Shown here: one piece after another, positions 4,021 through 54,200 of the stretch
Numbering within the stretch: position 1 is the stretch's first letter
Layout: each line of letters opens with the position of its first letter
Assembly (NCBI GenBank): GCA_965649765.1
Contig: OZ287749.1
Location: 1,550,001-1,614,000, forward strand
Length of the DNA: 64,000 nt
Direction: 5' to 3'
Source of the DNA: Bispira polyomma
Lineage: Eukaryota
The notes under the pieces: generated by a model
Databases searched by the model: none
What the model saw: the letters and a program-made list of their open reading frames with translations, nothing else
Told to the model about the DNA's origin: nothing
Position numbers and translations under genes: made by a program

Positions 4021-5174
4021 CTATTGTTGGGTCGTTCCTACTGTCGGCGTTTTCCCATGTAACTTAAAACATTTGGTTTCAGGATGTGTGTTTTCCTTTT
4101 TGTTGAAACAATAGCAATTTGCACAGATGTGTTTGAAGATTGTAGTCGAATTTTATTGGTCACCCTCTTGTGAGCATTGCCCCTTTTGATAATGGCGACA
4201 TGGCATTCAAGACTTTGTAGCAGTAATAGTAGCTGAGGTTGAGATGGACGCTTGTGAGTAGGAGAGCCTGTTAAGGCTCCATTTGTTTTCGTCTCCCCAC
4301 CCTAGTCTGCCCTCCTCCACATCGTGCATATTGCTGGCGTATGCGGTGCAAGCGACTGGCCATGAGATATTGCCGGCATCGCGAAGTGTGTCTGATAACT
4401 GCTTCAGCATAGCTCTAGCGACGTTACTGTTTCTAACTTCTATAATATTCTGTATCTGCCCCGATGCAAATTGTGTTGCTGATAGGTTGTCATAAGATGG
4501 GTGTTTTTATGGGCACCAGCTAAACAGCTTTCGTTTGGCCATCTGTATATGGGGTCCCTAGTACACATGTCTGAGGTGTTGAAACGCCCCGAATGCTTTT
4601 TCTGATGAAGCTTACCCTGTATTATGTCCTCTGCTGCCATGGACTCATACTGTTTCAATCTGAAATTGACCTCGTTCTGGACTAGTGCAGAGTGTCGTAA
4701 TACCTCTGGTGTGGGGTGAATGTCCCGTGTCGAATCGTCAGACCACTGTTGAGTAGGAGCAGGGTGTGTTCGACGTGAAGCACTAGTCTGGTGAGTTTGT
4801 GTCGACCAAAAGTCGTCAACACGTTGTGGTGTTCCGTATGGATCAGCCCTTTGGTTCCAGTCATCCTGGTTCCATGAGGTGGTGAGAGGGTTCGTGTGTC
4901 GAGCATGTTTCGGCTGTGCTGGTGTTTAATGTGAATTGTAGTCTAATAAAGGGTTACTACCTTGAGTGTCGTTGGTTTCATCGGGTTGGTCAGAAGATCC
5001 CTTACCCGTGTCGTGTTGCGAACGAGTATCTGGCTGTCTGTTTCTTTTCTTCATCTCGGACATATCTTTCTCTAACCTTGCTACAGTGCGAACCATCATT
5101 TCAATCATGGTTTGCTGGCATTTACACATATCTCGAAACATCTCTATCACACTTTTTTGTATAAACTTTCGCAC
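4021..5174 (-). pseudogene. E1 gag-like ORF (frameshifted)
   Basis: Homologous to E2 gag (WPNESCL, MLKQLSDTLRD, HDVEEGRL). C-terminal Cys/His cluster CRHYQKGQC...HICANC...HPETKC ends in CAA-TAG at 4026-4021. Confidence 0.85.
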
Positions 5175-12431: not shown

Positions 12432-13650
12432 CTGGAAAACAATTAGCTTGCCATTCTACCATATATAATCTAATCAATTCTGTAATGGCGCTTACTCTGC
12501 GTACTAGGGGATTCAAAGGCGCAACAATCAAAATCACTGTTCAGTAGTCGTGTTGTGGTGGAGGACAGGAAATGGGTCGTTACCAGGGAGGGAGTGTCTT
12601 GTGGTCAGACCATGTCAGGTGGGATAAGTGGGTAAATGTTATGACAGGATTAGTTGACATGGATAATACAATAATGTGTTTGTGATCAAGATTGACTAGT
12701 TTGCTGTCTCCCTTTGATGGTCTTTTAGAGCCCTTGGTGACATAGCTGAGGCCTAATGCTGGACAGCCATGGTTTGCTGTCGCTGTTATAAAGCGTTATG
12801 TTATAGGAAGAACACCTGCCAAACCATGGGATGGATCTTCTTATATAATTTTACCAATATTCAAGGTTTAGGCAAACGTTCTAACATGACAAAATAATAA
12901 AAAAGATAAAATTGATCTTAAATTTAAAAGATAACCATTTTATTGTTTAGTCATGAACATCCATAAAAGCCCACTTTTCCACCGTACTTACGTTTGCATT
13001 TCTGTACTGATTGAACAGCCATGGGTATATTCAAAATTTTATTAAAGCTTTTGGCCAATGAGAATCTCGAACACAGTCGTGTCATGTTAGAACATAGACT
13101 GACCAAACTGGGAACATTTGTTAAAAACAATTACAAACAACTGCAACACAGTTGCAGTTGTCATTAAATTAATCATAACATTGATTAGTGCCACATAGAG
13201 GTGCAACCTTTCTAAACCCAGGAGGTTAGGTTGAAAAAAATAGATCATATCTTTTGTTCAACCTAAGCATCATCGACGATAAGCAGTGACTGTTTTGAAT
13301 TCCAGAAAGGAATTGCATAAAGAAATCGAGATATCAAGATTCCAATGTTACATATTGGCGAGTGGTGGACATAATATAGTGCTCTGATGAAGAAAAGTTA
13401 TATGTTGATACACTATGTTTTTTTAAATTAAAAAATTTATAGATAAAGATTTTACTTATCAGTAGCTAAAATTGGGTGATAGAAGTTAGTGTTAATAAGT
13501 TAAGGGGGTTGACCACAAATTAGGTAAAGGTAAGTTTACATGGTGAGGAAACCAGTTGCTGTTTGGGATATATTTATTTTCTATCTACTGTCTCTATGTA
13601 CAACTATACAAGTAAAATTTGTGTAAAATTTTAAAATGCCAAAAGCGAAG

Positions 13651-14633
13651 TTAAAAAGTAGTGGTAGAGACAATAGAGGCAAAAGTAGATGGTATAATGG
13701 AGGCTGCATGGGAAGTAGCCTGCAAATAAGACCAAACAGCATCGGATTTCCAACACCCGTGTCTTTGTATATCCTGAAGTTTGATATTTGAATTGAAGGC
13801 TGAAGAGGCTCCAGAACGACTGAAGCAATGAAAAGAATGGCCATCTAAAGGAATGTTAAGATGACTGAGAATGTTTTTAAGTGTAGATCTAAGTTTAGAA
13901 TCTGAGAGGCAGAGGCCTTTATCTAAAGGATTGGCCAGTAATGAGGCCATGGAGGGTAGGGGATATTTCTCGAACAGAGATGTAGAGGCTCTGACTGGGC
14001 ACAACCAGGGGTTTGTAAGTGAGGGTAATTGAATGATATCTGGGTTTTTCCCACCCTGGTTAGTCTTACTCCATTTAAGGATAAGATGTATACCTGGGGG
14101 GGCGAAAACTATGTCAGCCCTAGTAAGGTGTCTTGTAGGGTCAAAGGGGGAGCCAGAAGTACTAGTAAGGTTGGAGATCCTTAAGAAGCCAAAGAAGGCA
14201 AAGAGGAAGGCTGTCCTGTATAGCTCAGGAAAATGGAGAAGGTCGCAGGCCTGTGAAATTCTGGATAATTGATGGAGATCAAAAACTCCTTTGATTCTGG
14301 GAGTGTATTAGGTGGTGAGTTCTAGAGATCTAGTGTACAAGATTAGCCTAGGGTCATACAGGCCTGTGTGTTGGAAATTAAGTAATTTAGCATTGTGTCT
14401 CAAAGCGGACAAATAATTTGCAATTACTTTGTGGGATATACCTGACTGGGTAAGGAACTCTAGGAAGGCCAATATAGTATTGAAACTAAATGTGTGTTGT
14501 AGGTCATAATACACAGTGAAGGCTAAGAAAAGTCTGAATTGACTGTTATATTGTCTCTGGGTTCTGGGTCTGTGACTCTGACGCAATCTTGAGAAGGCAC
14601 CCTGGATCAGTGAGCCCGCTGAGTGAGAGGTGC
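13651..14633 (-). pseudogene. E2 tyrosine recombinase
   Basis: One frame from 14631 to 13651 with a single premature TAA at 14310-14308. Motifs FFGFLRISNL, KWSKT, CPVRA, HCFSRSGA, HGCWKSDAVWSY. Confidence 0.93.
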
Positions 14634-14639
14634 CTGAAA

Positions 14640-17277
14640 TTAAAAATAATTATCTAATGTAAAGAAAGTGAGAGGAATGTCAAACATTTTAAAACTATCA
14701 ATGATAAAGGACCTAGTGTAGTCATCACAAGAGTCAGGTTCATACCAACACGAAAGTGTGTCAGCGATGATATTGTCCTTACCTGGGATATGGCTAATAA
14801 CAAGGTCAATATTTTCTGTGGCACAAATCTGCCAGAGGTTCCTCAAGCATAGCCCTAAGTAGTTATCTTTAGTCTTAGATGACTGCACCACAGAAACCAC
14901 AGCCATGTTGTCTGACTGAACCTTAAGTTTTGGTTTTTCCATTTGTGACTCCATAGTTTCAAGGCAATCAAAATGCTAACCATTTCAAAGTGTACGATTG
15001 ATAAAGTATGGGTCAAGAAGAGAGGTAGAGGAGTTTTGAACACATTGTTATTCCATATACCGCCAGTGCCTGATAAGCAAGCGTCCACCTGTAGTAGGGC
15101 ATCATGAGGTTTGTTAATGTAGTTATAAGTGGTAGTTCCGTTAAATTGTAAAAGAAATTTTAGAAACCAGGCTAAATCCAAATGGAAATCGGTGTTGAGA
15201 ACAACTGTATTACTACTGGTAGATTGGCGGAGCAGAGTAAGCATTCTGTTCATAAATATAGGGGTTTAATACATCTGTGTATATATAGCAATTTTCCTAG
15301 TAAAGATTGATATTTTTGTTTACGTACCTTTCTTAAGTATTGGAACTGTACACAAGTATCGTATATGGTATTCAGTTTATCCTTGTCAATACTGAGCGTT
15401 TCAGTGGTGATATCAATAGTGATGCCCATACAGGTGACACGTTTACTGGGAGGGACTAATTTTTTAGAATTAATTGGGAGACCTAGATCTGAAAGGGTTT
15501 CTTGTAAGGTGTTGTAAGCTAAGGTGGCCTTATCCTCAGACTCTACGAGTATAAAATCATCGATGTAGTTATACACTGTAAAGCCTTTTAATTTCATAAT
15601 ATAAGTGACACAATCTGAGGCCATCATAAAGGCCGCCGTGCCGTGTGTTAAGCCAAAAGTAAGAGTAAGATCAATGTAATAATTATCTTTCCAAAAATAT
15701 CTAAGTTTAAGGCAGTCATAAGGGTCAATTCTGATATTGCGAAAAGCGTGAGAAACGTCCACTTTCGCTAAGGTGGCCTTAGGACCGATGGACAAAATGA
15801 GAGAAGTGATTTGGTCAATAGTTGGAAGTTTAAGGTTGAAATTAATGTGGTCATATTTGGTTTTGACTGTGCAGTCATTAACAGATTGTCCTGTTGGATG
15901 GGAAAGGTTTAGTACTAATCTTCGTTGATCAGTGTCCTTGGGGACAGTTAGCAAGGGAGAACAATGTAAGTCAGGGTGGAGATCACTATTAATGGGGCCA
16001 ATTATGGTGCATCTGTTTACCTCAGTAACGAAATATTTGTCTATTGCCTGAGGGAAGGCTTTGGCTGAATGATGATTTTTTACCTTTGTGACGTGGAGTC
16101 GATCTCTCTCACGCAAGGAAATGGGAAATCCAAATTCCACATACTGTAAAATAATTTTGTCAGGGTAGTCAACCAAATATTCTTTCCACTTAGCCACATT
16201 AAGATTACTCTTAAGTGGAAAACGTGCTACCTTATAATTAGGAGTGCCAGTGGCTCTAATAATGTTGGCTACCTCTACAAGTTTATCATAGGAGTCAATG
16301 TTGACCTCTTGTCTAACAGGACCCACAAAGGAAAATTTGTTATAATGGTAAGGAATGTAATCAAAGGGTTTACTTTCAGTGACCAAATAGACCTCTTGTA
16401 TGTTGTTGTCTTTAGTAAGTATGTGAGAGCATTGTGATGGAAGTTCTTGTGTTATAACGTCCTCAAGAGCTGCAAGTGAGGTGTGTATGGCAGTGGTATT
16501 ACAGCTGGGAGTGTGTTTAATGTGTGAAAATTTTTCAAATTTTTTAGTGACAGGTTCTACCTGAGCTTGCTTCTGCTGGTCAAGCTTGCAAATGTTATCT
16601 ATGATGTCTGTATAATATATGGTGCTACCCAAAGTAGTACGTGTATGTGAAGTAGTTCTGTATGAGCCACCTTTCTGAAGTCTGTTCAGAGAGGTGACCG
16701 TAGCACAAGGTATTCTGGTCAAGACTGGGATGTACCCAGAGCTCTAATAAGTTATTGGCCAAATTTGTTGTAATGACCAAGAAGAGGGCTGGAATAGCCA
16801 GCTACCTTGTACAAGACTACACACATAAACGCCAGAGAGAGATACATCCTGTCGACATGCAAGGTAACAAAAATTTGTAAATAGACAGTTATCCAGACTA
16901 CAACTGAGATACATATCAAAAGCTTTAAAGTCCCAAAAATAGTCTTTACATGTGCTGTCCAACAGGTTAGAAACTGTAGCATCTGAATTAATATCTACAT
17001 TAAAACAATTTCTCTCAGTATGCATACTGCCAGAATAAATATTATCACAATTTAATGATGCCTGCGATGCACTGATCCTGCTATCTACAAGCAAATGTCC
17101 AGTACTCTTAAACTCAATGTGATCACTCAAGCTAGGGGTAAAATTATGGTTCTCATTATCGTCTGACTTAAAATTTTGCTTAAACCTATGTCTATAACTA
17201 ACACTGTTCTTCTGACTCATACTATATACACTATCTGGTTCGCACTCGGTGGTGGTGACTGTGGGCAGTCCGTGGTA
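14640..17277 (-). pseudogene. E2 pol (N-terminal extension, RT, RNase H)
   Basis: RT motifs RRLVLNLS, AKVDVSHAFRNI, FGLTHG, NYIDDF, CMGITID. RNase H motifs QVDACLSG, HFEM, SDNMAVV, HIPGKDNIIADTLS. In-frame TAG at 16746-16744 and frameshifts near 15255 and 14935. Confidence 0.93.
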
Positions 17278-18546
17278 CTATTGAGTCGGTGTAGGTGTTG
17301 GCGCGGGGCGACCATGTAGTTTAAAACATTTCGTTTCTGGATGGGGGTTAGACTTTTTACTGATCCGGAAACAATTCGCACATATATGTTTAAATAACAC
17401 ATTGGTGCCCTCGTGGTCTTTCTGATGCTGGCATTGACCCTTTTGATAATGCCTACACAGAATTTCTTGTTTAGTGGATGCAGAAGGAGTAGAATTCGTG
17501 GGAGCGTTGCTGGTGACTAGTGCTTGAGAATAAGCCTGTTGAGGGTCCACTTGGTCTCGTTAAGCCAGATGAGGCGACCCTCTTCGACATCATGCATGTT
17601 GCATGCATATGTTGCAGGTGTCTCTGAGGGTATCAGCTAGTTGAGTGAGCATAGCCCTGGAGATGGTTGGATTTTTGACCTCTAAAATGTTTTGAATCTG
17701 CCCGGCAGCGAATTGGGGTATGGTCAAATCGTCAAAGGAGACCCGTTTCTTATTAATGCCAGAGAGACAAGCCTCGTTGGGCCACCGTTTCATCGGGTCG
17801 GAGACGCACACATCCGATACGTTGTAACGCCTAGACTTCTTCTTGGTGGCTAGCTTACCTTGCAGGCTTTCGTCGGCTGCCCAGGCCTCATAACGGGCAA
17901 GACGGAGGGAAACCTCATTCTGAATCATAGAGGACTGCTTGAGGACATCGGGTGTCGGTACAATGGCATCATGTAGAGCCTGCTGTGTGTTGTCAGTACT
18001 CTGGAAACCTTGTGGCTGACCTGATACAGGAGGTTGAGCGTAAGGTGAGTGCATAAGCTGAGGAAGGTTTCTATGGACGTCATACCCGGGTACACTGAGA
18101 GGACCTTGAGTAGTGAATCTAGGATCCTGGTCTAGCTGTGTACTATGCACTGGTACGTGAAGCTGAGTAGTAGTTGTAGGACGGGGCGCGACGGAAGCCC
18201 CTGCTATGGGCAGCTGAGGAGCTGGAGTCTCGGGCCGACGAGACTTGAGGTCAGAAACGTCCTCTTGAAGTTTAGCTACGGTTGTGAGCAACGTTTGCAT
18301 CATGGCTTGCTGTCTAGTATGTATATCACGGTAGAATATATCAGAGGTAACTTTATCAGAGAAATTACTCACAGAATCACCGTCCAAATAACTAGCTGCT
18401 CCTAAATCTTGGCCTTGGGGAAGTTCCACTTCAGGCGGATCGGATACTCTGTTGCATCTAGTCCCGACCGGTCGGGGATGAGAGATGTCACACTTAGAAC
18501 ACATAGCCATATTAATGGCAAGTTGCTTCTTCTTTCCTCTGCCCAT
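17278..18546 (-). pseudogene. E2 gag-like ORF
   Basis: Start context AAA-ATG-G at 18546 (MGRGKKK). N-terminal CSKCDISHPRPVGTRC motif, heptad-like LLTTVAKLQEDVSDLK, C-terminal CRHYQKGQC...HICANC...HPETKC. Small indels at ~17535-17610. Confidence 0.85.
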
Positions 18547-19579
18547 TTTACTGATAAGATCCAAGTATAAGCTTCCAAGGATGAAACTATAATGTAACTT
18601 AAGTAATAAAACACTAAAAACACGTAAAAACAAAGTGTAATATAAACCAGAACATATAAAATAACCAAGTATTCTTCCAAAATACACTAAAAATCCAATA
18701 TGGCTGCTTTGGGCTGAGAAAATATGTATGTTGCTTCTTTGACTTGCAACTTAATAATGGTAGATTTGTAAGAAAGGCGGGAAGAGCTATGCTATGAAGG
18801 AAGGTAATTGGTCGCTTAGCCTAAGTGTGCTGATGTTTAATTGGGGTAGCCAGGTAAACAATTTTAAGAGAGGGTTTACAGTAAAGTAAGGAATTTTTGC
18901 CACTGACATGTCATGCTATGCTAGCAGTGACATCAACAGATTGTATGTTAACTTTATCTATATGGTCAGAATGTGAAGTTATGTGGATCCAAAGACCTTT
19001 ACGTATGGCAGTGATTTGACTGTCATTTGAACCCACTACCACTTAACTGGGAGACAAATGTGTTTACACCATGTAAAAATTGTAAATTTCTGGTAAATAC
19101 GATAAATCATAAAAAAAAATCTAAAGAGTTATAACTTTTGAATATTTCATAAGATAAAATTATAGACCTTGAAGTTCACAAACAGTGGCATAGAGTGAAT
19201 TCAATGAAGCCATTGTTGATGTAAGCATTTGCAATTAGGGAGAATTGATGTGAATGTGCACAGGGTGTTTGTTTCCAATATGGGACCTTAAAATCAGTCA
19301 CTTGAATGGGAGAATGTGTCACAAAGGTGAACAATTAGTACTAAAGTGGGGATTTTGTGAGCAGTGAAATGTGCTGAAATACAATTGAGGGACAGCTGGT
19401 GCTGAACAAGTAAAATGTGTCAAGAGAGTTTACTCAAACAATGACAATGAAACAAATTAATTTGCAGATAGCTATACCCAACAAAGTGAACAATTTACTT
19501 AGAAGTGGTTAAAAAAGGTACACAGCCCAGATCTATTTGTTTGTCACTGAGAAGGCAATTGATCGATCGAGTAGTTTCA

Positions 19580-27009: not shown

Positions 27010-28314
27010 ATGGCACCACATAAACTGTGGTGTGGAACGAAACACACCAAACCTATTAACTTACAATGCCCTTGGCAGGATGTAGAGAGTGAGAGTGAGG
27101 ACAATAGTAATAGCAGCACCATGTCATCGGCGGAGGTGAATTTGCTCATATTACAAGAACTTAAAGACCTTGGAAGTAGAATGTCTAAAGTTGAGAAATG
27201 GGTAGAAACGGACAGACAGTGTGTTAATTCCCCCGTTCAGAAAGTGGCTAGTGTGCCTATAAGTCTAGAACATTGTGTTAGTAGCACACAGGTATAGCCA
27301 CAGGTGGGAGGAGTGGCTCAGGCATTTGGCAGGCAGCAGGTGATGCAGCAAACCCAGGATTCACAGGCATTTGGCAGGCAGCAGGTGATGCAGCAAACCC
27401 AGGATTCACAGGCATTTGGCAGGCAGCAGCTGATGTAGCAAACCCAGGATTCACAGGCATTTGGCAGGCAGCAGTGATGCAGCAAACCCAGGATTCACAG
27501 GCATTTGGCAGGCAGCAGGTGATGTAGCAACCACAGGAGTCTCAGGCATTTGACAGGCAGCAGGTGATGTAGCAGCCTCAGGAGTCTCAGGCATTTGGCA
27601 GGCAACAGAACCGTTGGCCCACTGATTCGGATGACCTGGTGGTTCCATCTCTCCTGACGTTGAGGTCGGACCAGCTCCAGAGGGCAGTGGACACCAGAGT
27701 AAAGGACCTTCAGAGAATCAACGAGACAGGTAATTTTAAGTCTCAAAGGGGGGGTACAGAGACAGTCTGGGTAAAACAACAAGTCTCTTGGCCTCAGAAC
27801 TTCATCCTAGGGGATCAAAGTAAAAACCGTTTGTCTTATGATAGCCTGTCAATGGCCCAATGGATTTCTGGCTTTAGTACTATAATGAGAGAAGAGTCAA
27901 ATTTAGATACAAAAAATGCTATGTTGGAGTATCTCTCAGAGATAATGGAGGATTGCCATGATTTTAGCTGGTCAGCTGCCAAAGGCAGCCATGCCGTCCT
28001 CCTATGTAAAATGGACGAGGGCAAAGGTGTCTTGGTCAGAAACTAATAAGATCGACAGAATTAGAAGAGCTCATGCTCAGAAAGGTTCGTTCCAAAACTC
28101 AACTCATTCTCAGGTTAGCAAAAATGGACATAGTAAGAGCATGCCCTGCAAATATTTCCAAAAGGGCACTTGTCCTCAGAAAAACGACCACGAAAACAAT
28201 GGCAAGCTCTATACTTATGTGTGTGCAGCCTGCTCTGCTATAGGCAAAAATTTTCCCCACCCTGAAAAAGATTGTAGGAAAAGCAAGGCTAATGCAGCTC
28301 CAAAAAACGACTAG
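27010..28314 (+). pseudogene. E3 gag-like ORF
   Basis: N-terminal WCGTKHTKPINLQC, WPQNFIL, SYDSLSMAQWISGF, SWSAAK, C-terminal CKYFQKGTC...VCAAC...HPEKDC. Several stops and frameshifts. Confidence 0.85.
27319..27605 (+). repeat. 45-bp minisatellite within E3 gag (~6.5 copies)
   Basis: Unit caggcatttggcaggcagcaggtgatgcagcaaacccaggattca. Confidence 0.92.
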
Positions 28315-28619
28315 GGCACTGCAAAACGGCAGTGCAAGCATAAAACTCGGCATTTATACCAGGTACAAATAGTCAGGCATGTAGCAGAGCAGGCTTCACT
28401 TTGTCTAGAATCATTGCAAATTCTGAGGTTACCAACATGAGTAGTGACAACTGGAGATCTGACTGGGCGAGATTCAGTAGTAAAACATATGTATAGGTCG
28501 TGAAACAAAAGCTCTCGAGCCCTAAACAGGCTAGTAAAAACTCAAAACACAGAGAAGTAGTTCAAAATAAAAAAAATGATCCCCAGTTGTCACACCAGAA
28601 AGGTTGTAAATAAAAAATG

Positions 28620-32734: not shown

Positions 32735-35700
32735 CTCATGCATACCAGGGATATAGGCACTACCACTAAACAGTGCCACAAGTGTCACCACTACACCAAT
32801 GACACCAACACCTCATGTATACCAGGGATATAGGCACTACCACTAAACAGTGCCACAAGTGTCACCACTACACCAATGACACCAACACCTCATGTATACC
32901 AGGGATATAGGCACTACCACTAAACAGTGCCACAAGTGTCACCACTACCCCAATGACACCAACACATCATGTATACCAGGGATATAGGCACTACCTGTAA
33001 CCAGTGCCACAAGTGTCACCACTATCCCAATGACACCAACACATCACGTATACCAGAGATATAGGCATTACCTGTAAACAGTGTCACAAGTGTCACTACT
33101 ACACCAATGACACCAACACCTCATGTATACCAGGGATATCGGCACTACCTGTAAACAGTGCCACAAGTGTCACTACTACACCAATGACAACACCTCATGT
33201 ATACCAGAGATATAGGCACTACCACTAAACAGTGCCACAAGTGTCACCACTACACCAATGACACCAACACCTCATGTATACCAGGGATATAGGTACTACC
33301 ACTAAACAGTGCCACAAGTGTCACCACTACACCAATGACACCAACACCTCATGTATACCAGGGATATAGGTACTACCACTAAACAGTGCCACAAGTGTCA
33401 CTACTACACCAATGACACCAGCACCTCATGTATACCAGGGATATAGGCACTACCTGTAAACAGTGCCACAAGTGTCACTATTACACCAATGACACCAACA
33501 CCTCATGTATACCACGGATATCGGCACTACCTGTAAACAGTGCCACAAGTGTCACCACTACACCAATGTCCCCAACACCTCATGTATACCAGAGATATAG
33601 GCACTACCACTAAACAGTGCCACAAGTGTCACCACTACCCCAATGACAGCAACACCTCATGTATACCAGGGATATAGGCACTACCACTAAACAGTGCCAC
33701 AAGTGTCATTACTACACCAATGACACGAACACCTCATGTATACCAGGGATATAGGCACTACCACTAAACAGTGCCACAAGTGTCATTACTACACCAATGA
33801 CACCAACACCTCATGTATACCAGGGATATCGGCACTACCTGTAAACAGTGCCACAAGTGTCACTACTACACCAATGACAACACCTCATGTATACCAGAGA
33901 TATAGGCACTACCACTAAACAGTGCCACAAGTGTCACCACTACACCAATGACACCAACACCTCATGTATACCAGGGATATAGGTACTACCACTAAACAGT
34001 GCCACAAGTGTCACCACTACACCAATGACACCAACACCTCATGTATACCAGGGATATAGGTACTACCACTAAACAGTGCCACAAGTGTCACTACTACACC
34101 AATGACACCAGCACCTCATGTATACCAGGGATATAGGCACTACCTGTAAACAGTGCCACAAGTGTCACTATTACACCAATGACACCAACACCTCATGTAT
34201 ACCACGGATATCGGCACTACCTGTAAACAGTGCCACAAGTGTCACCACTACACCAATGTCCCCAACACCTCATGTATACCAGAGATATAGGCACTACCAC
34301 TAAACAGTGCCACAAGTGTCACCACTACCCCAATGACAGCAACACCTCATGTATACCAGGGATATAGGCACTACCACTAAACAGTGCCACAAGTGTCATT
34401 ACTACACCAATGACACCAACACCTCATGTATACCAGGGATATAGGCACTACCTGTAAACAGTGCCACAAGTGTCACCACTACACCAATGACACGAACACC
34501 TCATGTATACCAGGGATATAGGCACTACCACTAAACAGTGCCACAAGTGTTACCACTACACCAATGACACCAACACCCCATGTATACCAGGGATATAGGC
34601 ACTACCTGTAAACAGTGCCACAAGTGTCACTACTACACCAATGACAACACCACATGTATACCAGAGATATAGGCACTACCTGTAAACAGTGCCACAAGTG
34701 TCACTACTACACCAATGACAACACCCCATGTATACCAGGGATATAGGCACTACCACTAAACAGTGCCACAAGTGTCACTACTACACCAGTGACACCAACA
34801 CCTCATGTATACCAGGGATATAGGCACTACCTGTAAACAGTGCCACAAGTGTCACTACTACACCAATGACAACACCTCATGTATACCAGAGATATAGGCA
34901 CTACCACTAAACAGTGCCACAAGTGTCACCACTACACCAATGACACCAACACCTCATGTATACCAGGGATATAGGTACTACCACTAAACAGTGCCACAAG
35001 TGTCACCACTACACCAATGACACCAACACCTCATGTATACCAGGGATATAGGTACTACCACTAAACAGTGCCACAAGTGTCACTACTACACCAATGACAC
35101 CAGCACCTCATGTATACCAGGGATATAGGCACTACCTGTAAACAGTGCCACAAGTGTCACTATTACACCAATGACACCAACACCTCATGTATACCACGGA
35201 TATCGGCACTACCTGTAAACAGTGCCACAAGTGTCACCACTACACCAATGTCCCCAACACCTCATGTATACCAGAGATATAGGCACTACCACTAAACAGT
35301 GCCACAAGTGTCACCACTACCCCAATGACAGCAACACCTCATGTATACCAGGGATATAGGCACTACCACTAAACAGTGCCACAAGTGTCATTACTACACC
35401 AATGACACGAACACCTCATGTATACCAGGGATATAGGCACTACCACTAAACAGTGCCACAAGTGTCATTACTACACCAATGACACCAACACCTCATGTAT
35501 ACCAGGGATATCGGCACTACCTGTAAACAGTGCCACAAGTGTCACTACTACACCAATGACAACACCTCATGTATACCAGAGATATAGGCACTACCACTAA
35601 ACAGTGCCACAAGTGTCACCACTACACCAATGACACCAACACCTCATGTATACCAGGGATATAGGTACTACCACTAAACAGTGCCACAAGTGTCACCACT

Positions 35701-36704
35701 ACACCAATGACACCAACACCTCATGTATACCAGGGATATAGGTACTACCACTAAACAGTGCCACAAGTGTCACTACTACACCAATGACACCAGCACCTCA
35801 TGTATACCAGGGATATAGGCACTACCTGTAAACAGTGCCACAAGTGTCACTATTACACCAATGACACCAACACCTCATGTATACCACGGATATCGGCACT
35901 ACCTGTAAACAGTGCCACAAGTGTCACCACTACACCAATGTCCCCAACACCTCATGTATACCAGAGATATAGGCACTACCACTAAACAGTGCCACAAGTG
36001 TCACCACTACCCCAATGACAGCAACACCTCATGTATACCAGGGATATAGGCACTACCACTAAACAGTGCCACAAGTGTCATTACTACACCAATGACACGA
36101 ACACCTCATGTATACCAGGGATATAGGCACTACCACTAAACAGTGCCACAAGTGTCATTACTACACCAATGACACCAACACCTCATGTATACCAGGGATA
36201 TAGGCACTACCTGTAAACAGTGCCACAAGTGTCACCACTACACCAATGACACGAACACCTCATGTATACCAGGGATATAGGCACTACCACTAAACAGTGC
36301 CACAAGTGTTACCACTACACCAATGACACCAACACCCCATGTATACCAGGGATATAGGCACTACCTGTAAACAGTGCCACAAGTGTCACTACTACACCAA
36401 TGACAACACCACATGTATACCAGAGATATAGGCACTACCTGTAAACAGTGCCACAAGTGTCACTACTACACCAATGACAACACCCCATGTATACCAGGGA
36501 TATAGGCACTACCACTAAACAGTGCCACAAGTGTCACTACTACACCAGTGACACCAACACCTCATGTATACCAGGGATATAGGCACTACCTGTAAACAGT
36601 GCCACAAGTGTCACCACTACACTAACACCTCATGTATACCAGGGATATAGGCACTACCTGTAAACAGTGCCACAAGTGTCACCACTACACCAATGACACC
36701 AACA
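32735..36704. repeat. 77-bp tandem satellite, ~52 copies, with higher-order structure
   Basis: Unit cctcatgtataccagggatataggcactaccactaaacagtgccacaagtgtcaccactacaccaatgacaccaaca, with occasional 74-bp variants. Confidence 0.97.
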
Positions 36705-49400: not shown

Positions 49401-51281
49401 TTAAGTAGGACAGAAACTGACTCTTCTCTGCACTGTGAATCCACCGTTCTTATATGTAAAGACTTTTAGCGTCCGTTCTTCATCGGCAACTACCAGTTGA
49501 CCTTTGTTGTCCACAGCGATACATGATGGACCCATTCTTAAACCCAGGTCACACGAGAGGAGAGACCGCAGGCATTTACCACATGAGTCTAACATGTAGA
49601 CCCTACAGTTGTACAGATCGCTGACAAAGATATAGCCGTTCTGGTCGGCACAGAGAGAATTCGGATAGAACGGTCGGGGTGTTGTACAGGAAGGCTTGAA
49701 ATCCCACTTGTGTTGTCCGAGGCTAGTAAGAGCAATCACGGACTGTCTGATGTCATCACCAAGTAGAATATCCGATGTAAGAGGGTTTGTGGCGATGCTA
49801 ACTGGACTGGAAAAAGCCCTGTTGCTATGGCAACCATTGAATACTGCACAGGTAGGAATGCTGTAAAGAAATGCTGTGTTTTTCTCGTCGTGAACAGAGA
49901 TCCGGGCACTCTGGTGATTCACGACAAAGATATGATCGTTCTGGTGACATGTCACAGCGGCTAAGTTAGAGAATGAGTCATCCTCTATAGTCTTTAGATG
50001 CTGTCCTTTTGTACTGAAGACGTGAACACTATTGAGAAGCTTATCCATGATCACAACATTGCCATTCTTGTTCAGACAGAGAGCAATGGGGCTCTTTAAC
50101 AGACAACCTCCCTTGTTGCCAATCTTTCTTTTGAGACGACCCCTCTGATCCACTACATACACCTGTTTGGTGTCTACTACAATCATCTCTCCCTTGTCTG
50201 TCACAACCATATCTGATATCCACTTGTTTTGGATGTAATCCAGTTTCAATGTAGTCTTTAAGGTCACCTGACTGTCTGGTAGTGAAGTCTTATTGAACTG
50301 TGAAGAAAACTCTGTATTCGGAGCGAGCGAAAACCTGGCTACCGACTTTCTGATTTCCTCCTGCGACATGGTCATTTGTGAATCAGGAATGGCTACTTTG
50401 TGTCTTTTTTTCACTGCCCCAAACAACTGGATACTCTGCTGTAGTCCTTCCTTCTGCCTATCACTCAATGTCAGCTGACCTCCTGGTTGACTAGCATTTT
50501 GGTAAGCATGTCCTGCTTGGTCTCTGGCAACAGAATGACCTTGAATCAGATTTTCAGTTTCAATTTGCAACAGCCGTCTTGGGCGAGTGACTCGCGAACA
50601 TTGACACATGCGAGGATCTTTCAGAAGACGCTTACACTTTTCGCAGTCCGAATTTACTGTTTCAAAGTAACACCTGTTCTGGAAGGATGGGCTTCCAATA
50701 CTTTGCTGTACTATGTCGTCTATATAATCGCACTTTGCATAGGTCAATGGAGGAGGATTCTGAGGAATTGGCTTCTTCTTTCGAAATGACAGTCTTAAGT
50801 TTCTTAAGTCAAATCCAAATTGCTTGGAACATTTTGGCACAGTATGTTTACTTGTTTTGTCATTGCACGTTGTAGTTTGCTGATGCTGCCATGTGGGATT
50901 GTTGTGCAGAAGTTTAGGCTGTTGAAAGACAGTTTCTGGATCTTCGCTCAATGTATGCAAACTCGAGAAGGATTTGGAACGTGGAAGGCTGTTGCGCCCA
51001 GTAGAGCCGTCAATTATTTCTGGACATTCCGCCCTTCGTGACATATTCTGAGAATTCCCCAAATAACCGGACTCAAATCCGGCTACTAACCTGTGACCTC
51101 CCGAAATTTTCATTGTCTGGATCTTTTCTGGAGTAACATCCGGAGAAGGAAGTGTTCTTTCTGTGATCCCGTTTTCCAGTGCCTTAAACACTCTAGCCTC
51201 ATGCTTGAGCATTTTAGTAATTTCAATGGCACCATCTGGGCGATAATTGGTGCTTTGAGTGGGATTTCTCCGTAAAGACAT
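49401..51281 (-). CDS. NHL-repeat beta-propeller protein (TRIM2/3-, brat-, lin-41-like C-terminus; no RING or B-box seen), single coding exon, ~626 aa
   Basis: Uninterrupted 1.9 kb ORF. NHL-like repeats: SPIALCLNKNGNVVIMD, SPVSIATN...ILLGD, YPNSLCADQNGYIFVSDLYNCRVYML, GPSCIAVDNKGQLVVAD. The ATG at 51281 has a GCAAAATG context. Confidence 0.85.
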   Translation of the reverse strand: MSLRRNPTQSTNYRPDGAIEITKMLKHEARVFKALENGITERTLPSPDVTPEKIQTMKISGGHRLVAGFESGYLGNSQNMSRRAECPEIIDGSTGRNSLPRSKSFSSLHTLSEDPETVFQQPKLLHNNPTWQHQQTTTCNDKTSKHTVPKCSKQFGFDLRNLRLSFRKKKPIPQNPPPLTYAKCDYIDDIVQQSIGSPSFQNRCYFETVNSDCEKCKRLLKDPRMCQCSRVTRPRRLLQIETENLIQGHSVARDQAGHAYQNASQPGGQLTLSDRQKEGLQQSIQLFGAVKKRHKVAIPDSQMTMSQEEIRKSVARFSLAPNTEFSSQFNKTSLPDSQVTLKTTLKLDYIQNKWISDMVVTDKGEMIVVDTKQVYVVDQRGRLKRKIGNKGGCLLKSPIALCLNKNGNVVIMDKLLNSVHVFSTKGQHLKTIEDDSFSNLAAVTCHQNDHIFVVNHQSARISVHDEKNTAFLYSIPTCAVFNGCHSNRAFSSPVSIATNPLTSDILLGDDIRQSVIALTSLGQHKWDFKPSCTTPRPFYPNSLCADQNGYIFVSDLYNCRVYMLDSCGKCLRSLLSCDLGLRMGPSCIAVDNKGQLVVADEERTLKVFTYKNGGFTVQRRVSFCPT

Positions 51282-54200
51282 TTTGCCAACAACAACAAAA
51301 ATGAGTGTCAAATCTAAAATAAATCTCGCCAATATGGTTTCTGGTGTAATCACATAACGGATTAGTTGATCCAATAGGTGGCCATTTAGTAATACTACAG
51401 TGAAATGCCTATATAAATCAAGTCCTGCTCGCAATAAAACCATGCTTTTGTCATATTGTTTGGCTGATCTTATGTACAAACCATATCCATTCTGTTCATG
51501 GGATAGTTTTCCAGGAAGTTTATTCCTTCTGTTTTAATCCATTTTCTTTTTAATTTCAAGTGCATACAATTCCTCTGTTTGTCTCCACACTTTTATTTTT
51601 GCACAATTTGCACATATTCTGTATTATATCCACATTTTGCACAATTTGCACATAGTCTGTATTATATCCACATTTTGCACGGCTTGTGTTTACTAAACTT
51701 ATATGTGTATCTATTTCCTTGTGTATATACTTATGTATACGCGTTACATAAGTATAGCCTCCTCTTTGAGTACAAAGAACTAAAACAGTAACCATGCCAA
51801 TTGAATTATTCTACAAGACCCATATCAAATTTAGATTTATTCAATACATCCTGAAATTTTAAATAACAAAAAAGCGTCATACGGTACAGATGCTATATAA
51901 GTTATAATATAAGTTTCCCATGTATAGAATGAGGGAAGACTATATATGTAGACTTATATAATGACTCTGTATACGCATCCAATATACATCTAGAGAGAGA
52001 GAATTTCTTGCACCTGAAATCTGCAAAATGTTTGTTTTACTAGAATGAAGTTCACACAATTTACCCCAGGTAATTTCTTACACTGTTCAAACAGAAGGCT
52101 GAATATTGCTTTATGTACCCAAGGCAAACATTCAAAGTGTTGTCTTATAACCGTTAAATCTGATACTCTGTGGTCTTAGATAGTTTCAAAAAGACAAGCC
52201 CAGCCTAGTTTAAGCTTTAAATAAGTCTAAATCAATCTATTTATTCAATCCATTTACTTTAAATGGGTTTTTATTCCTTTCTAGCAGAAATTTATATATA
52301 TATATATTGTTTAGCTTGCCATTTAATAGATTATGGTTTGTAACATCAATACAAAAATATTTAAAAACGCACATCGATTTTGCAGTTTAAGTTAAGGTTA
52401 ACTAATCTTCTCAAATCACTTTTTTCTGTTTAAGGAATGGCAGAATACTGACCCAGCCAATCATCCTTATCTACCTGTACTTCACTACTCCATCACTAGT
52501 TTGGAAAGTACCTTAAGTTTAAGACTTAAACTAATATATAAACAGAGGCAGGAAGATTTTTGGAAGTTACTTAAATAAAGCTGAAAAAGTGTCATATTAT
52601 AATCAACATAATTACACAATAATCAGTGCATCTATTATTTTATGAAAACAAAAGAATTAGCTCATAATCAGAGATACACAGAATATAAGGTGCAACCTTA
52701 GCTTAAGGATTACAAGCATCAATTACCATTGCACTATAAAAGGTGGGGAAGAGTAAACATAGAGATAATAAAACCACTTAATCAAATTTAATTTGTAGTA
52801 AGGGTCAGTATTTTTTTTTTTTTTTTTTTTTTACTGTGGGGAATGTTACTAAAGTTTGGATTTTATGGTCACCTTAAAAGTAGACGGTTATTAATGTTGA
52901 TAGATTTTATGTTAAAATTATGTTGTTTGATGTGTTTAACCCTTAAGATTAGGTTTCTGACAATTAAATTAAGCAGACGCTGATGGGATATAAAGAACAT
53001 AGAAAATATGGTGTAAATTATAGTTCTGTAGATTTGATCTGAAATGATATTCTTTAACATTTAAAGTTAATACTGTTCATGATATATATATATATATATG
53101 TTTAAAAGAGAGTGGTTATTGATAAGGTAATTCTTGAACCTGACAGAGTCATGGTCACCTTAAAGTAGATATGTACTGATGTTTATACTGTTTGGTTTTT
53201 GTTTCTAAATTTTGCCTTCCTCAATTAAGTTTCTATATAGTTTTAAACTAAAGCCGACCACTCAGGGGAAACATATTCAAACTCGGCAAAAGAATCTTGT
53301 AGATTTGGTGTGAAATGATATTTTTAAATCTATACATAGTGAACCCTTTCTATAAGATATATAATTGAAAGGGGAGGATACCGCACATAGAGTATTATTG
53401 ATAAGGTAATTATTGATTCTGACAATTTCATTACAAGACTTTTTTAAGCCCAAAAAATAAAGAACAACACCTACTTAAACAAGAGTGAGCCTTTTTTAAA
53501 GACACAGACGCACAGTATGAGAAACTGTTGGAAACCCGGGAGAGTTCCGAGTTTAAAAATCCACAAACTTCCAAAGTTTAGTATCCACCAACTGCTATGT
53601 GAAAAAAAACTCTTCCGTGAGGAATATAAAAAAAAAATACGTAAGAAAAAGTGAGAGCCATTTTGCTAGTTAAACATAAGCTAGTAAATAGATTATTGAA
53701 CACAAATATTGTACGATTCTACCTTATTCTATTTTAAGAAATACAACAAAATATTAATCTGACACCCATCAGTTTGGACCGGTCAATTGCTTCCAACCAA
53801 TCCATGAAGGCCTTACATATTATTTTTAACATGGGCGGGCAATAATAGTCTATGCCTGATATTTGACAATATAAATCAAACACCCCGCAGTTTGGACTGG
53901 TCTGTTGCTTCCAACCAATCCATGAATGACTTAGATATTATTTCCAAGATGGCTGTGCCCTTGTCAGAGTGAAAACAATATCAGCTAGCGCCTGATAAAA
54001 ATGATCTCCCAAATTGCCAGTTAAGTTTACACTCCTTCAATCTGAATAAAATGGTCTTATTACATCATACTATATATGTCCAACTATCATGTAGCATATG
54101 TGCGTGTGTGTGTGTGTATGTGTATATGTAAATTATTCTTCAAACAAAGAACTTGTTCACACATCCAAAAAGGTGATGTGTTATCTGTCCACACACGTTA

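Follow-up and report, generated by a model that had tools for sequence, protein, structure and literature searches.

A candidate UAG readthrough junction and a predicted kilobase-range RNA stem between gag and pol of Ngaro-type retrotransposons in Bispira polyomma

E2 is a retrotransposon copy in a 64-kb stretch of the Bispira polyomma genome (GenBank assembly GCA_965649765.1, contig OZ287749.1, positions 1,550,001 to 1,614,000 of the forward strand; hereafter the window), and its gag frame ends in a UAG codon that lies in frame with pol. Judged by its sequence, E2 is a decayed copy of a tyrosine-recombinase retrotransposon of the Ngaro type. Coordinates follow the forward-strand numbering of the window, and the letters of E2 are read on the minus strand. 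Comparison with related elements makes readthrough of this stop a well-supported candidate route to Pol, since UAG-G stands in frame in many diverged families, no ATG is conserved between them, and at the corresponding place a sister lineage has a candidate -1 frameshift signal. The sequences themselves hold an in-frame UAG, an open frame behind it that has no shared ATG, and complementarity and covariation between the bases after the stop and a distant part of pol. Readthrough of some kind is probable, and with moderate confidence we favour a type III-like UAG readthrough that a long-range RNA stem would stimulate. A broader proposal, that UAG readthrough in a deep animal Ngaro clade would need a stem spanning 2.3-2.8 kb, with Pol made from full-length unspliced RNA only, and that a sister clade would have swapped it for a local -1 hairpin at the same position, seems slightly better than an even bet.

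In the proposed mechanism, a Gag-Pol fusion would arise when a minority of ribosomes pass the conserved UAG. The stimulator would be a predicted duplex of 17-25 bp between bases that begin about 7-9 nt past the stop and RNase H codons that follow 2.3-2.8 kb downstream. This duplex would form in cells, sit at the mRNA entrance of a ribosome with the UAG in its A site, and raise readthrough. Both arms lie inside a predicted intron, so that only full-length unspliced RNA would carry the two of them, and we infer that Pol would be made only from intact, unspliced genomic RNA.

A preliminary description of the window, made from its letters alone, had read the end of gag as ACT CAA TAG followed by TAC CAC GGA CTG, and these letters and their coordinates are right (17286-17278 (-)). 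The CAA-UAG junction, with the gag stop as candidate readthrough codon, occupies 17278..17283 (-). A gag frame with a CCCH-type finger precedes the TAG, and the same frame reaches the reverse transcriptase (RT) after it, with 558 nt between 17280 and 16722. The stem GACTG-CCCA-CAGTC drawn 7 nt past the stop, the ATG at 17220, and a second TAG at 16746-16744 are also present. To sample the E2 family we used a genome search that scored 40 of 238 candidates and returned 45 matches, the best 30 of which were aligned. The junction TAG is found in all 30 of these copies, while the TAG at 16746, which had been read as a probable decay mutation, occurs in just one, the window copy itself. The register from the junction to 16746 is kept in 28/30, and in 12/30 no interruption breaks frame 0 before the RT core; in nearly all copies frame +1 is closed by a stop after at most about 20 codons and frame +2 after at most about 15. 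The first in-frame ATG past the stop (17218..17220 (-), codon 20) is kept in 29/30 copies, so the E2 family alone cannot separate readthrough from internal initiation. Initiation at this ATG, which the preliminary description gave as an alternative, thus keeps its support within the family but loses it between families, where the ATG is not conserved.

Searches with the finger across this one genome gave three lineages, each of which forms a clade on Pol trees. The protein searches comprised 150 rows each, and subsets were fetched for diversity and long frames. Stops were counted by alignment column, and loci were merged if a 140-nt finger stretch was identical; this merging dropped one TAA copy, and a few places may count twice. 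Pol identity is 38-46% between the two UAG lineages and 32-41% between these and the third. TAG stands at the junction in 118/128 loci of the E2 lineage and 37/42 of the second lineage. In the third lineage, where pol lies in frame -1, the stop varies freely (25 TAG, 10 TAA, 9 TGA, and 1 other; n = 45). A diverged relative of E2 within the window, E1, has the same CAA-UAG-G junction (4021..4026 (-)). Four single copies (L241, L059, L295, L307), all decayed-looking, have a sense codon at the junction, and no family with fused gag and pol was seen among the loci fetched.

The bases on either side of the stop differ in how widely they are kept. CAA precedes the TAG in 112/118 loci of the E2 lineage but in 0/37 of the second UAG lineage. 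CAA is thus kept within the E2 lineage, but it was rejected as a universal part of the signal. G follows the TAG in 86/118 and 36/37 loci, respectively. The commonest stop hexamer, UAGGAC, is one base off the listed type III contexts, and the type III contexts UAGGGA, UAGGGC, UAGGUA, and UAGGAU occur among the junctions. C at +4 is found in 0/118 and 0/37 loci, so that the type I context of tobacco mosaic virus (TMV), UAG CAR YYA, is absent from both sets.

Copies with no more than one stop ahead of RT were taken as near-open; their pol lies in frame 0 in 44/48 for the E2 lineage, and in frame -1 in 12/12 for the third lineage. The first Met after the stop falls between codons 16 and 122 across 14 lineages, which leaves no shared pol ATG, and in seven of the 14, chance hardly explains the open stretch that precedes it (shuffle P at most 0.009). 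Around the stop, synonymous sites are mildly more conserved than overall (0.60-0.61 vs 0.45), but other regions are equally high and we did not use this measure. The preliminary description had proposed that Pol is made by readthrough and not from overlapping open reading frames (ORFs). The in-frame UAG and the lack of a conserved ATG speak for this proposal, and what did not survive is the local hairpin that was to act as the stimulator.

That 5-bp hairpin can be drawn in the 60 nt after the stop, but it is no better than chance. These 60 nt fold at -6.9 kcal/mol in E2 (z +1.03), and 170/200 shuffles fold as well. Across 27 lineage representatives, which were picked for clean junctions, z fell below -2 in 1/27 at 40 nt and in 0/27 at 100 nt. 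Local folds of the second lineage gave z from -2.0 to +2.1 (three lengths, 11 rows) with no significant conserved structure. The local hairpin was rejected as stimulator because it is neither significant nor conserved. As for a compact H-type pseudoknot of the gammaretroviral kind within about 60 nt, no significant local fold was found with a folding program that does not model pseudoknots, and Rfam returned no match at E up to 1 in 13400-19000. Bases +13 to +22 are conserved singly although the amino acids change, which prompted a search for another explanation.

The best complement of these bases lies far downstream, in a scan that reached up to 4.3 kb past the stop. In E2 the proximal arm of the predicted duplex (17252..17270 (-)) runs from +11 to +29, counted from the U of the stop, and contains the hairpin drawn at 17270-17257. 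Its distal arm (14881..14900 (-)) is about 2.35 kb downstream, in RNase H codons for D-N-M-A-V-V-S-V-V-Q-S. The duplex of the window copy has a predicted energy of -33.1 kcal/mol, and the next best site reaches -22.6. For E1 the best partner of the proximal arm is near 1410-1380, again in RNase H, at -35.1 kcal/mol vs -27.9 for the next best. The homologous site, at the RNase H codons after D-N, is the best complement of the post-stop bases in 16/16 elements and the best partner in 30/36 rows of a larger set; in five of the six misses, no RNase H motif could be recognised in the DNA that was fetched. In the third lineage the RNase H site is best in 1/14, by 0.3 kcal/mol and in two short pieces. 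When the entire 2.7-2.9 kb region was folded, the minimum-energy structure also contained the helix in 3/3 elements tried. The proximal arm of some families can partly pair with itself (17270-17257 (-) in E2), and a weak local fold there would compete with the long-range stem, which is possibly a switch and possibly chance.

The two arms match within families better than between them. Arms of the same family pair at a mean of -31.5 kcal/mol, compared with -21.1 for the distal arms of other families, a difference reached in 0/20000 permutations; this comparison used 28 lineages, in one of which the motif was misplaced. The data themselves supplied the pair registers, and 6/34 lineages were left out for lack of the motif. 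A single register for both UAG lineages fitted poorly, so the registers were split by lineage. In the three resulting register sets, 241/304, 94/112, and 105/117 cells are paired, and 9/16, 4/7, and 4/13 columns show two-sided change, values that permutations reached in 0, 7, and 8 of 5000. We also counted covariation on a Pol tree from which the motif columns had been left out, with slid registers as controls. The E2 lineage shows 15 double changes that keep a pair against one that breaks it, where slid registers gave 0-4.

Known readthrough stimulators start after a spacer of 7-12 nt according to the cited passages (PMC13517186; PMC3159437), the first of which also describes type III contexts as weak alone and in need of structure (PMC13517186). 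As type III contexts occur among the junctions and the predicted stems begin at the known spacing, we infer readthrough that the stem would stimulate.

The third lineage may have solved the same problem in another way. Its member in the window, E3, has an A_AAA_AAC heptamer (28302-28308), then the stop, and a 7-bp hairpin (28316-28335), which together form a candidate -1 frameshift signal at 28302..28335 (+). The heptamer stands just before the stop in 34/45 loci of the lineage (L151-L199, including E3). It is followed after 7 nt by a hairpin of 7-9 bp, with z below -2 in 13/13. A_AAA_AAC is listed among the most shift-prone heptamers in the part of the source consulted (PMC5009743). We regard the junction of this lineage, with pol in -1, as a candidate programmed -1 frameshift site; no description of one for Ngaro was found in the literature searched. 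The Pol trees have no outgroup and do not set the order in which readthrough and frameshifting arose.

Both arms of the duplex also lie between two splice-like sites. A conserved phase-1 donor-like site in gag (CAAG/GTAAGC, the slash marking the predicted joint; 17853..17862 (-)) is matched by a phase-1 acceptor-like site at the start of the recombinase frame (TAATTTCAG/G; 14633..14642 (-)), and the two are conserved in all three lineages. The predicted splice would join the N-terminal half of Gag to the recombinase. In a scan that spanned both ends of this predicted intron, the duplex ranked first in 6/6 UAG elements, while six elements of the frameshift lineage gave scattered best pairs. A second possible long-range duplex, of -24 to -33 kcal/mol, occurs at similar places in 4/12 elements (L214, L219, L204, L201) and joins a site about 310-360 nt before the gag stop with one about 135 nt before the recombinase acceptor. 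It is found in both the readthrough and the frameshift lineages and could bridge the intron.

This arrangement leads to a rival account, which we consider unlikely. Here local context alone would drive readthrough, and the long-range duplex would be real but have another job, such as looping out most of the gag-to-recombinase intron so as to help or tune its splicing, packaging, or reverse transcription. Not only are both arms within the predicted intron, but the distal one lies about 270 nt ahead of the acceptor. The CAA before the stop in the E2 lineage also fits with two 5' adenines raising readthrough in yeast, as reported in the passages seen (PMC4615788). The second lineage, however, has no CAA. 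Moreover, the -1 lineage shares this donor and acceptor yet lacks such a duplex, in place of which a local hairpin stands at this position. In every lineage the proximal arm begins between +4 and +11, and a bridge for splicing would not need so constant a distance. That the lineage without the stem shows a local frameshift hairpin at the corresponding site favours a recoding role over a splicing role, short of proof.

Production of Pol from a spliced mRNA appears quite unlikely. The conserved phase-1 gag donor could join a CAG ending at +22, or a phase-0 donor could join the TAG/G itself. TAG is the sole stop codon that ends in AG, phase-0 GTRAGT sites occur in the N-terminal part of gag in several families, and an AG at +21/+22 matches the phase of the conserved donor (A in 23 and G in 26 of 27 in the E2 lineage; 9/11 in the second). 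Neither place resembles an acceptor, however, as the upstream T fraction is 0.11 for the TAG and 0.13 for +22, compared with 0.48 for the recombinase acceptor of these same elements, and +11 and +12 are purines in 27/27. Pairing explains the AG at +22, which changes together with its partner in two families. The phase-0 donors number six where three are expected, share no single homologous site, and are missing from the E1 copy examined and from near this place in the second lineage. Searches for genomic copies that were already spliced, with patterns that cover part of the families, found none: 0/4 matches to donor variants were such copies. Only 2/54 matches to the post-stop motif were not already behind a finger, and both have a normal junction. 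In contigs from three runs (X1-X3), whose varied flanks look genomic, none of 15 joints inspected out of 83 lay at a predicted splice site.

An independent start for Pol, through reinitiation at an in-frame CUG (+13) or the first AUG or from an internal promoter as in Tca2, is improbable: it can draw on the ATG kept in E2, on CUG as the fourth codon past the stop in about 21/27 lineages, and on the junction promoter credited with part of the junction activity in the passages on Tca2 (PMC2194720), but the position of the first Met varies as described above, the second lineage lacks this CUG, whose presence elsewhere is explained by a paired CAG in RNase H, and neither reinitiation nor a promoter explains a near-constant in-frame UAG. 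Internal initiation would fit E2 alone and not the whole set of lineages.

Several points weigh against stem-stimulated readthrough itself. The case is built from sequence comparison and predicted pairing, and all lineages come from one genome. In other species, a metagenome scan gave two loci, one an unrelated frame without RT and the other a 14-residue match, and a viral scan gave three 11-residue matches. The pair registers are scored on the data from which they were taken. The duplex is imperfect: on the tree, the E2 lineage also has 33 changes to one side only that break a pair, and the second lineage shows a single double change, no more than its slid controls. One of the 31 rows with an RNase H site (L291) pairs better elsewhere. 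The E2 family itself has UAG-U (31/118 loci) and not the type III UAG-G, and its open stretch before the first Met is explained by chance (shuffle P 0.50). A comparable in-frame stop with a predicted pseudoknot, in Tca2, gave no readthrough in a yeast reporter according to the passages seen (PMC2194720). Finally, these elements are described as having no protease in the part of the source consulted (PMC3783388), and without one a Gag-Pol fusion would remain at about 1,300 residues.

E2 extends over 13460..18936 (-), from its A1 repeat to its B1 repeat, as delimited by BLAST against two full-length copies (L041 and L043); the A2-B2 end is missing from the window copy. Its parts follow the Ngaro order of gag, RT/RNase H, and tyrosine recombinase. 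The gag frame (17278..18546 (-)) has a CCCH-type finger at its end and, in the window copy, is broken by gaps near 17610 and again near 17535. The pol frame (14640..17277 (-)) comprises a poorly conserved linker, RT, and RNase H, with RVT_1 and RVT_3 matches in L043, and is interrupted in the window copy by the stop at 16746-16744 and a gap near 15261. L043 has 880 open pol codons, and its Pol finishes just past RNase H. The recombinase frame (13651..14649 (-)) is split in the window copy by a stop at 14310-14308. Of the Pfam matches, that to RT is above the cut-off, while those to RNase H, the finger (zf-CCCH_4), and the recombinase (Phage_int_SAM and Phage_integrase) are weak and below it.

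The class assignment rests on the ends of the element and the content of Pol. Split direct repeats in the order A1-ORFs-B1-A2-B2 occur in 4/4 full-length copies examined, with 97-100% identity, A repeats of about 223 nt, B repeats of 183 nt, and a spacer of about 490-710 nt from A2 to B2. The ends are direct repeats and do not fit DIRS1-like elements, which are marked by inverted terminal repeats and an internal complementary region. The methyltransferase domain that marks DIRS1-like and PAT elements was not found in the 880-residue Pol of L043, where only RVT_1 and RVT_3 matched at E up to 1. Split direct repeats and a Pol without a methyltransferase match fit Ngaro. A protein search returned 22 relatives without accompanying DNA, one labelled 'hypothetical protein' and 21 unnamed, and gave no named Ngaro reference for an RT phylogeny.

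We also made some observations outside E2. One element of the second lineage is present in eight near-identical copies (L287-L290 and four more), spaced about 29.4 kb apart on one contig in a large tandem array. In the window, 33000-36000 is a tandem-repeat region with strong skew and recurring short frames, and 49401-51533 (-) holds a 710-codon open frame. The C-terminal part of this frame presumably resembles NHL/beta-propeller repeats.

If true, the proposed mechanism would be a first on two counts, as a case of recoding in tyrosine-recombinase retrotransposons and as a readthrough stimulator that acts over kilobases in a retroelement. Readthrough control at such range, so far known from plant RNA viruses, would then include an animal retroelement, and a single genome would hold sister lineages that use readthrough or -1 frameshifting at the same spot. 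It offers a concrete model for the expression of a DIRS-order pol without a start codon, with two 20-nt arms as a handle. It also suggests a search for remote partners in elements with an in-frame gag-stop-pol arrangement whose local flanks failed, such as Tca2. Annotating such TAGs as decay, or folding just 60 nt past the stop, would miss the signal.

Among known systems, Ngaro elements (order DIRS) share gag, RT/RNase H, tyrosine recombinase, and split direct repeats with E2 (PMC8547959; PMC9210276; PMC4157794; PMC3783388), and no methyltransferase was found here either. The ORFs of Xenopus Ngaro are described as overlapping in the passages seen, unlike the in-frame arrangement here. The titles and abstracts searched contained no description of gag-pol recoding in DIRS or Ngaro elements, though Repbase and the original Ngaro paper may mention in-frame junctions, and the available passages on these elements give architecture only, with no recoding signal (PMC6681497; PMC3266345; PMC7192593; PMC9210276; PMC4157794; PMC3783388; PMC8547959). 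Tca2, a Ty1/copia element of Candida albicans, likewise has gag and pol split by one in-frame stop. It differs as a long terminal repeat (LTR) element with UGA and a predicted local pseudoknot; in the passages seen its local flanks were insufficient and the authors suggest remote signals, with no remote partner identified there (PMC2194720).

The readthrough sites of alphaviruses, tobraviruses, and Drosophila share a stem of 10-14 bp or longer, often with a 1-nt bulge, a spacer of 7-12 nt, and both arms in coding sequence, according to the part of the source seen (PMC3159437). Their loops are about 100-270 nt and their stops mostly UGA, while the loop here is about 2,350 nt. The gammaretrovirus MoMLV has a gag finger, an in-frame UAG-G, a spacer of about 8 nt, and structure near +12, as the cited passages describe (PMC13517186; PMC3159437). 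In contrast, the elements here have no compact pseudoknot, no protease past the stop, and a purine-rich spacer only in some families, and E2 itself has UAG-U.

A parallel in distance is the tombusvirus CIRV; a 3.5-kb pairing drives readthrough in a tombusvirus according to the passages seen (PMC3234231). Both systems have a UAG-G-type stop before the polymerase and a partner kilobases away, 3.5 kb in the virus and a predicted 2.3-2.8 kb here. In CIRV, a large local stem-loop is described as pairing with a 3'-terminal replication element (PRTE-DRTE). Here there is no detectable local structure, and the whole predicted stem of 17-25 bp would be long-range, with its distal arm in the RNase H codons of an animal retrotransposon.

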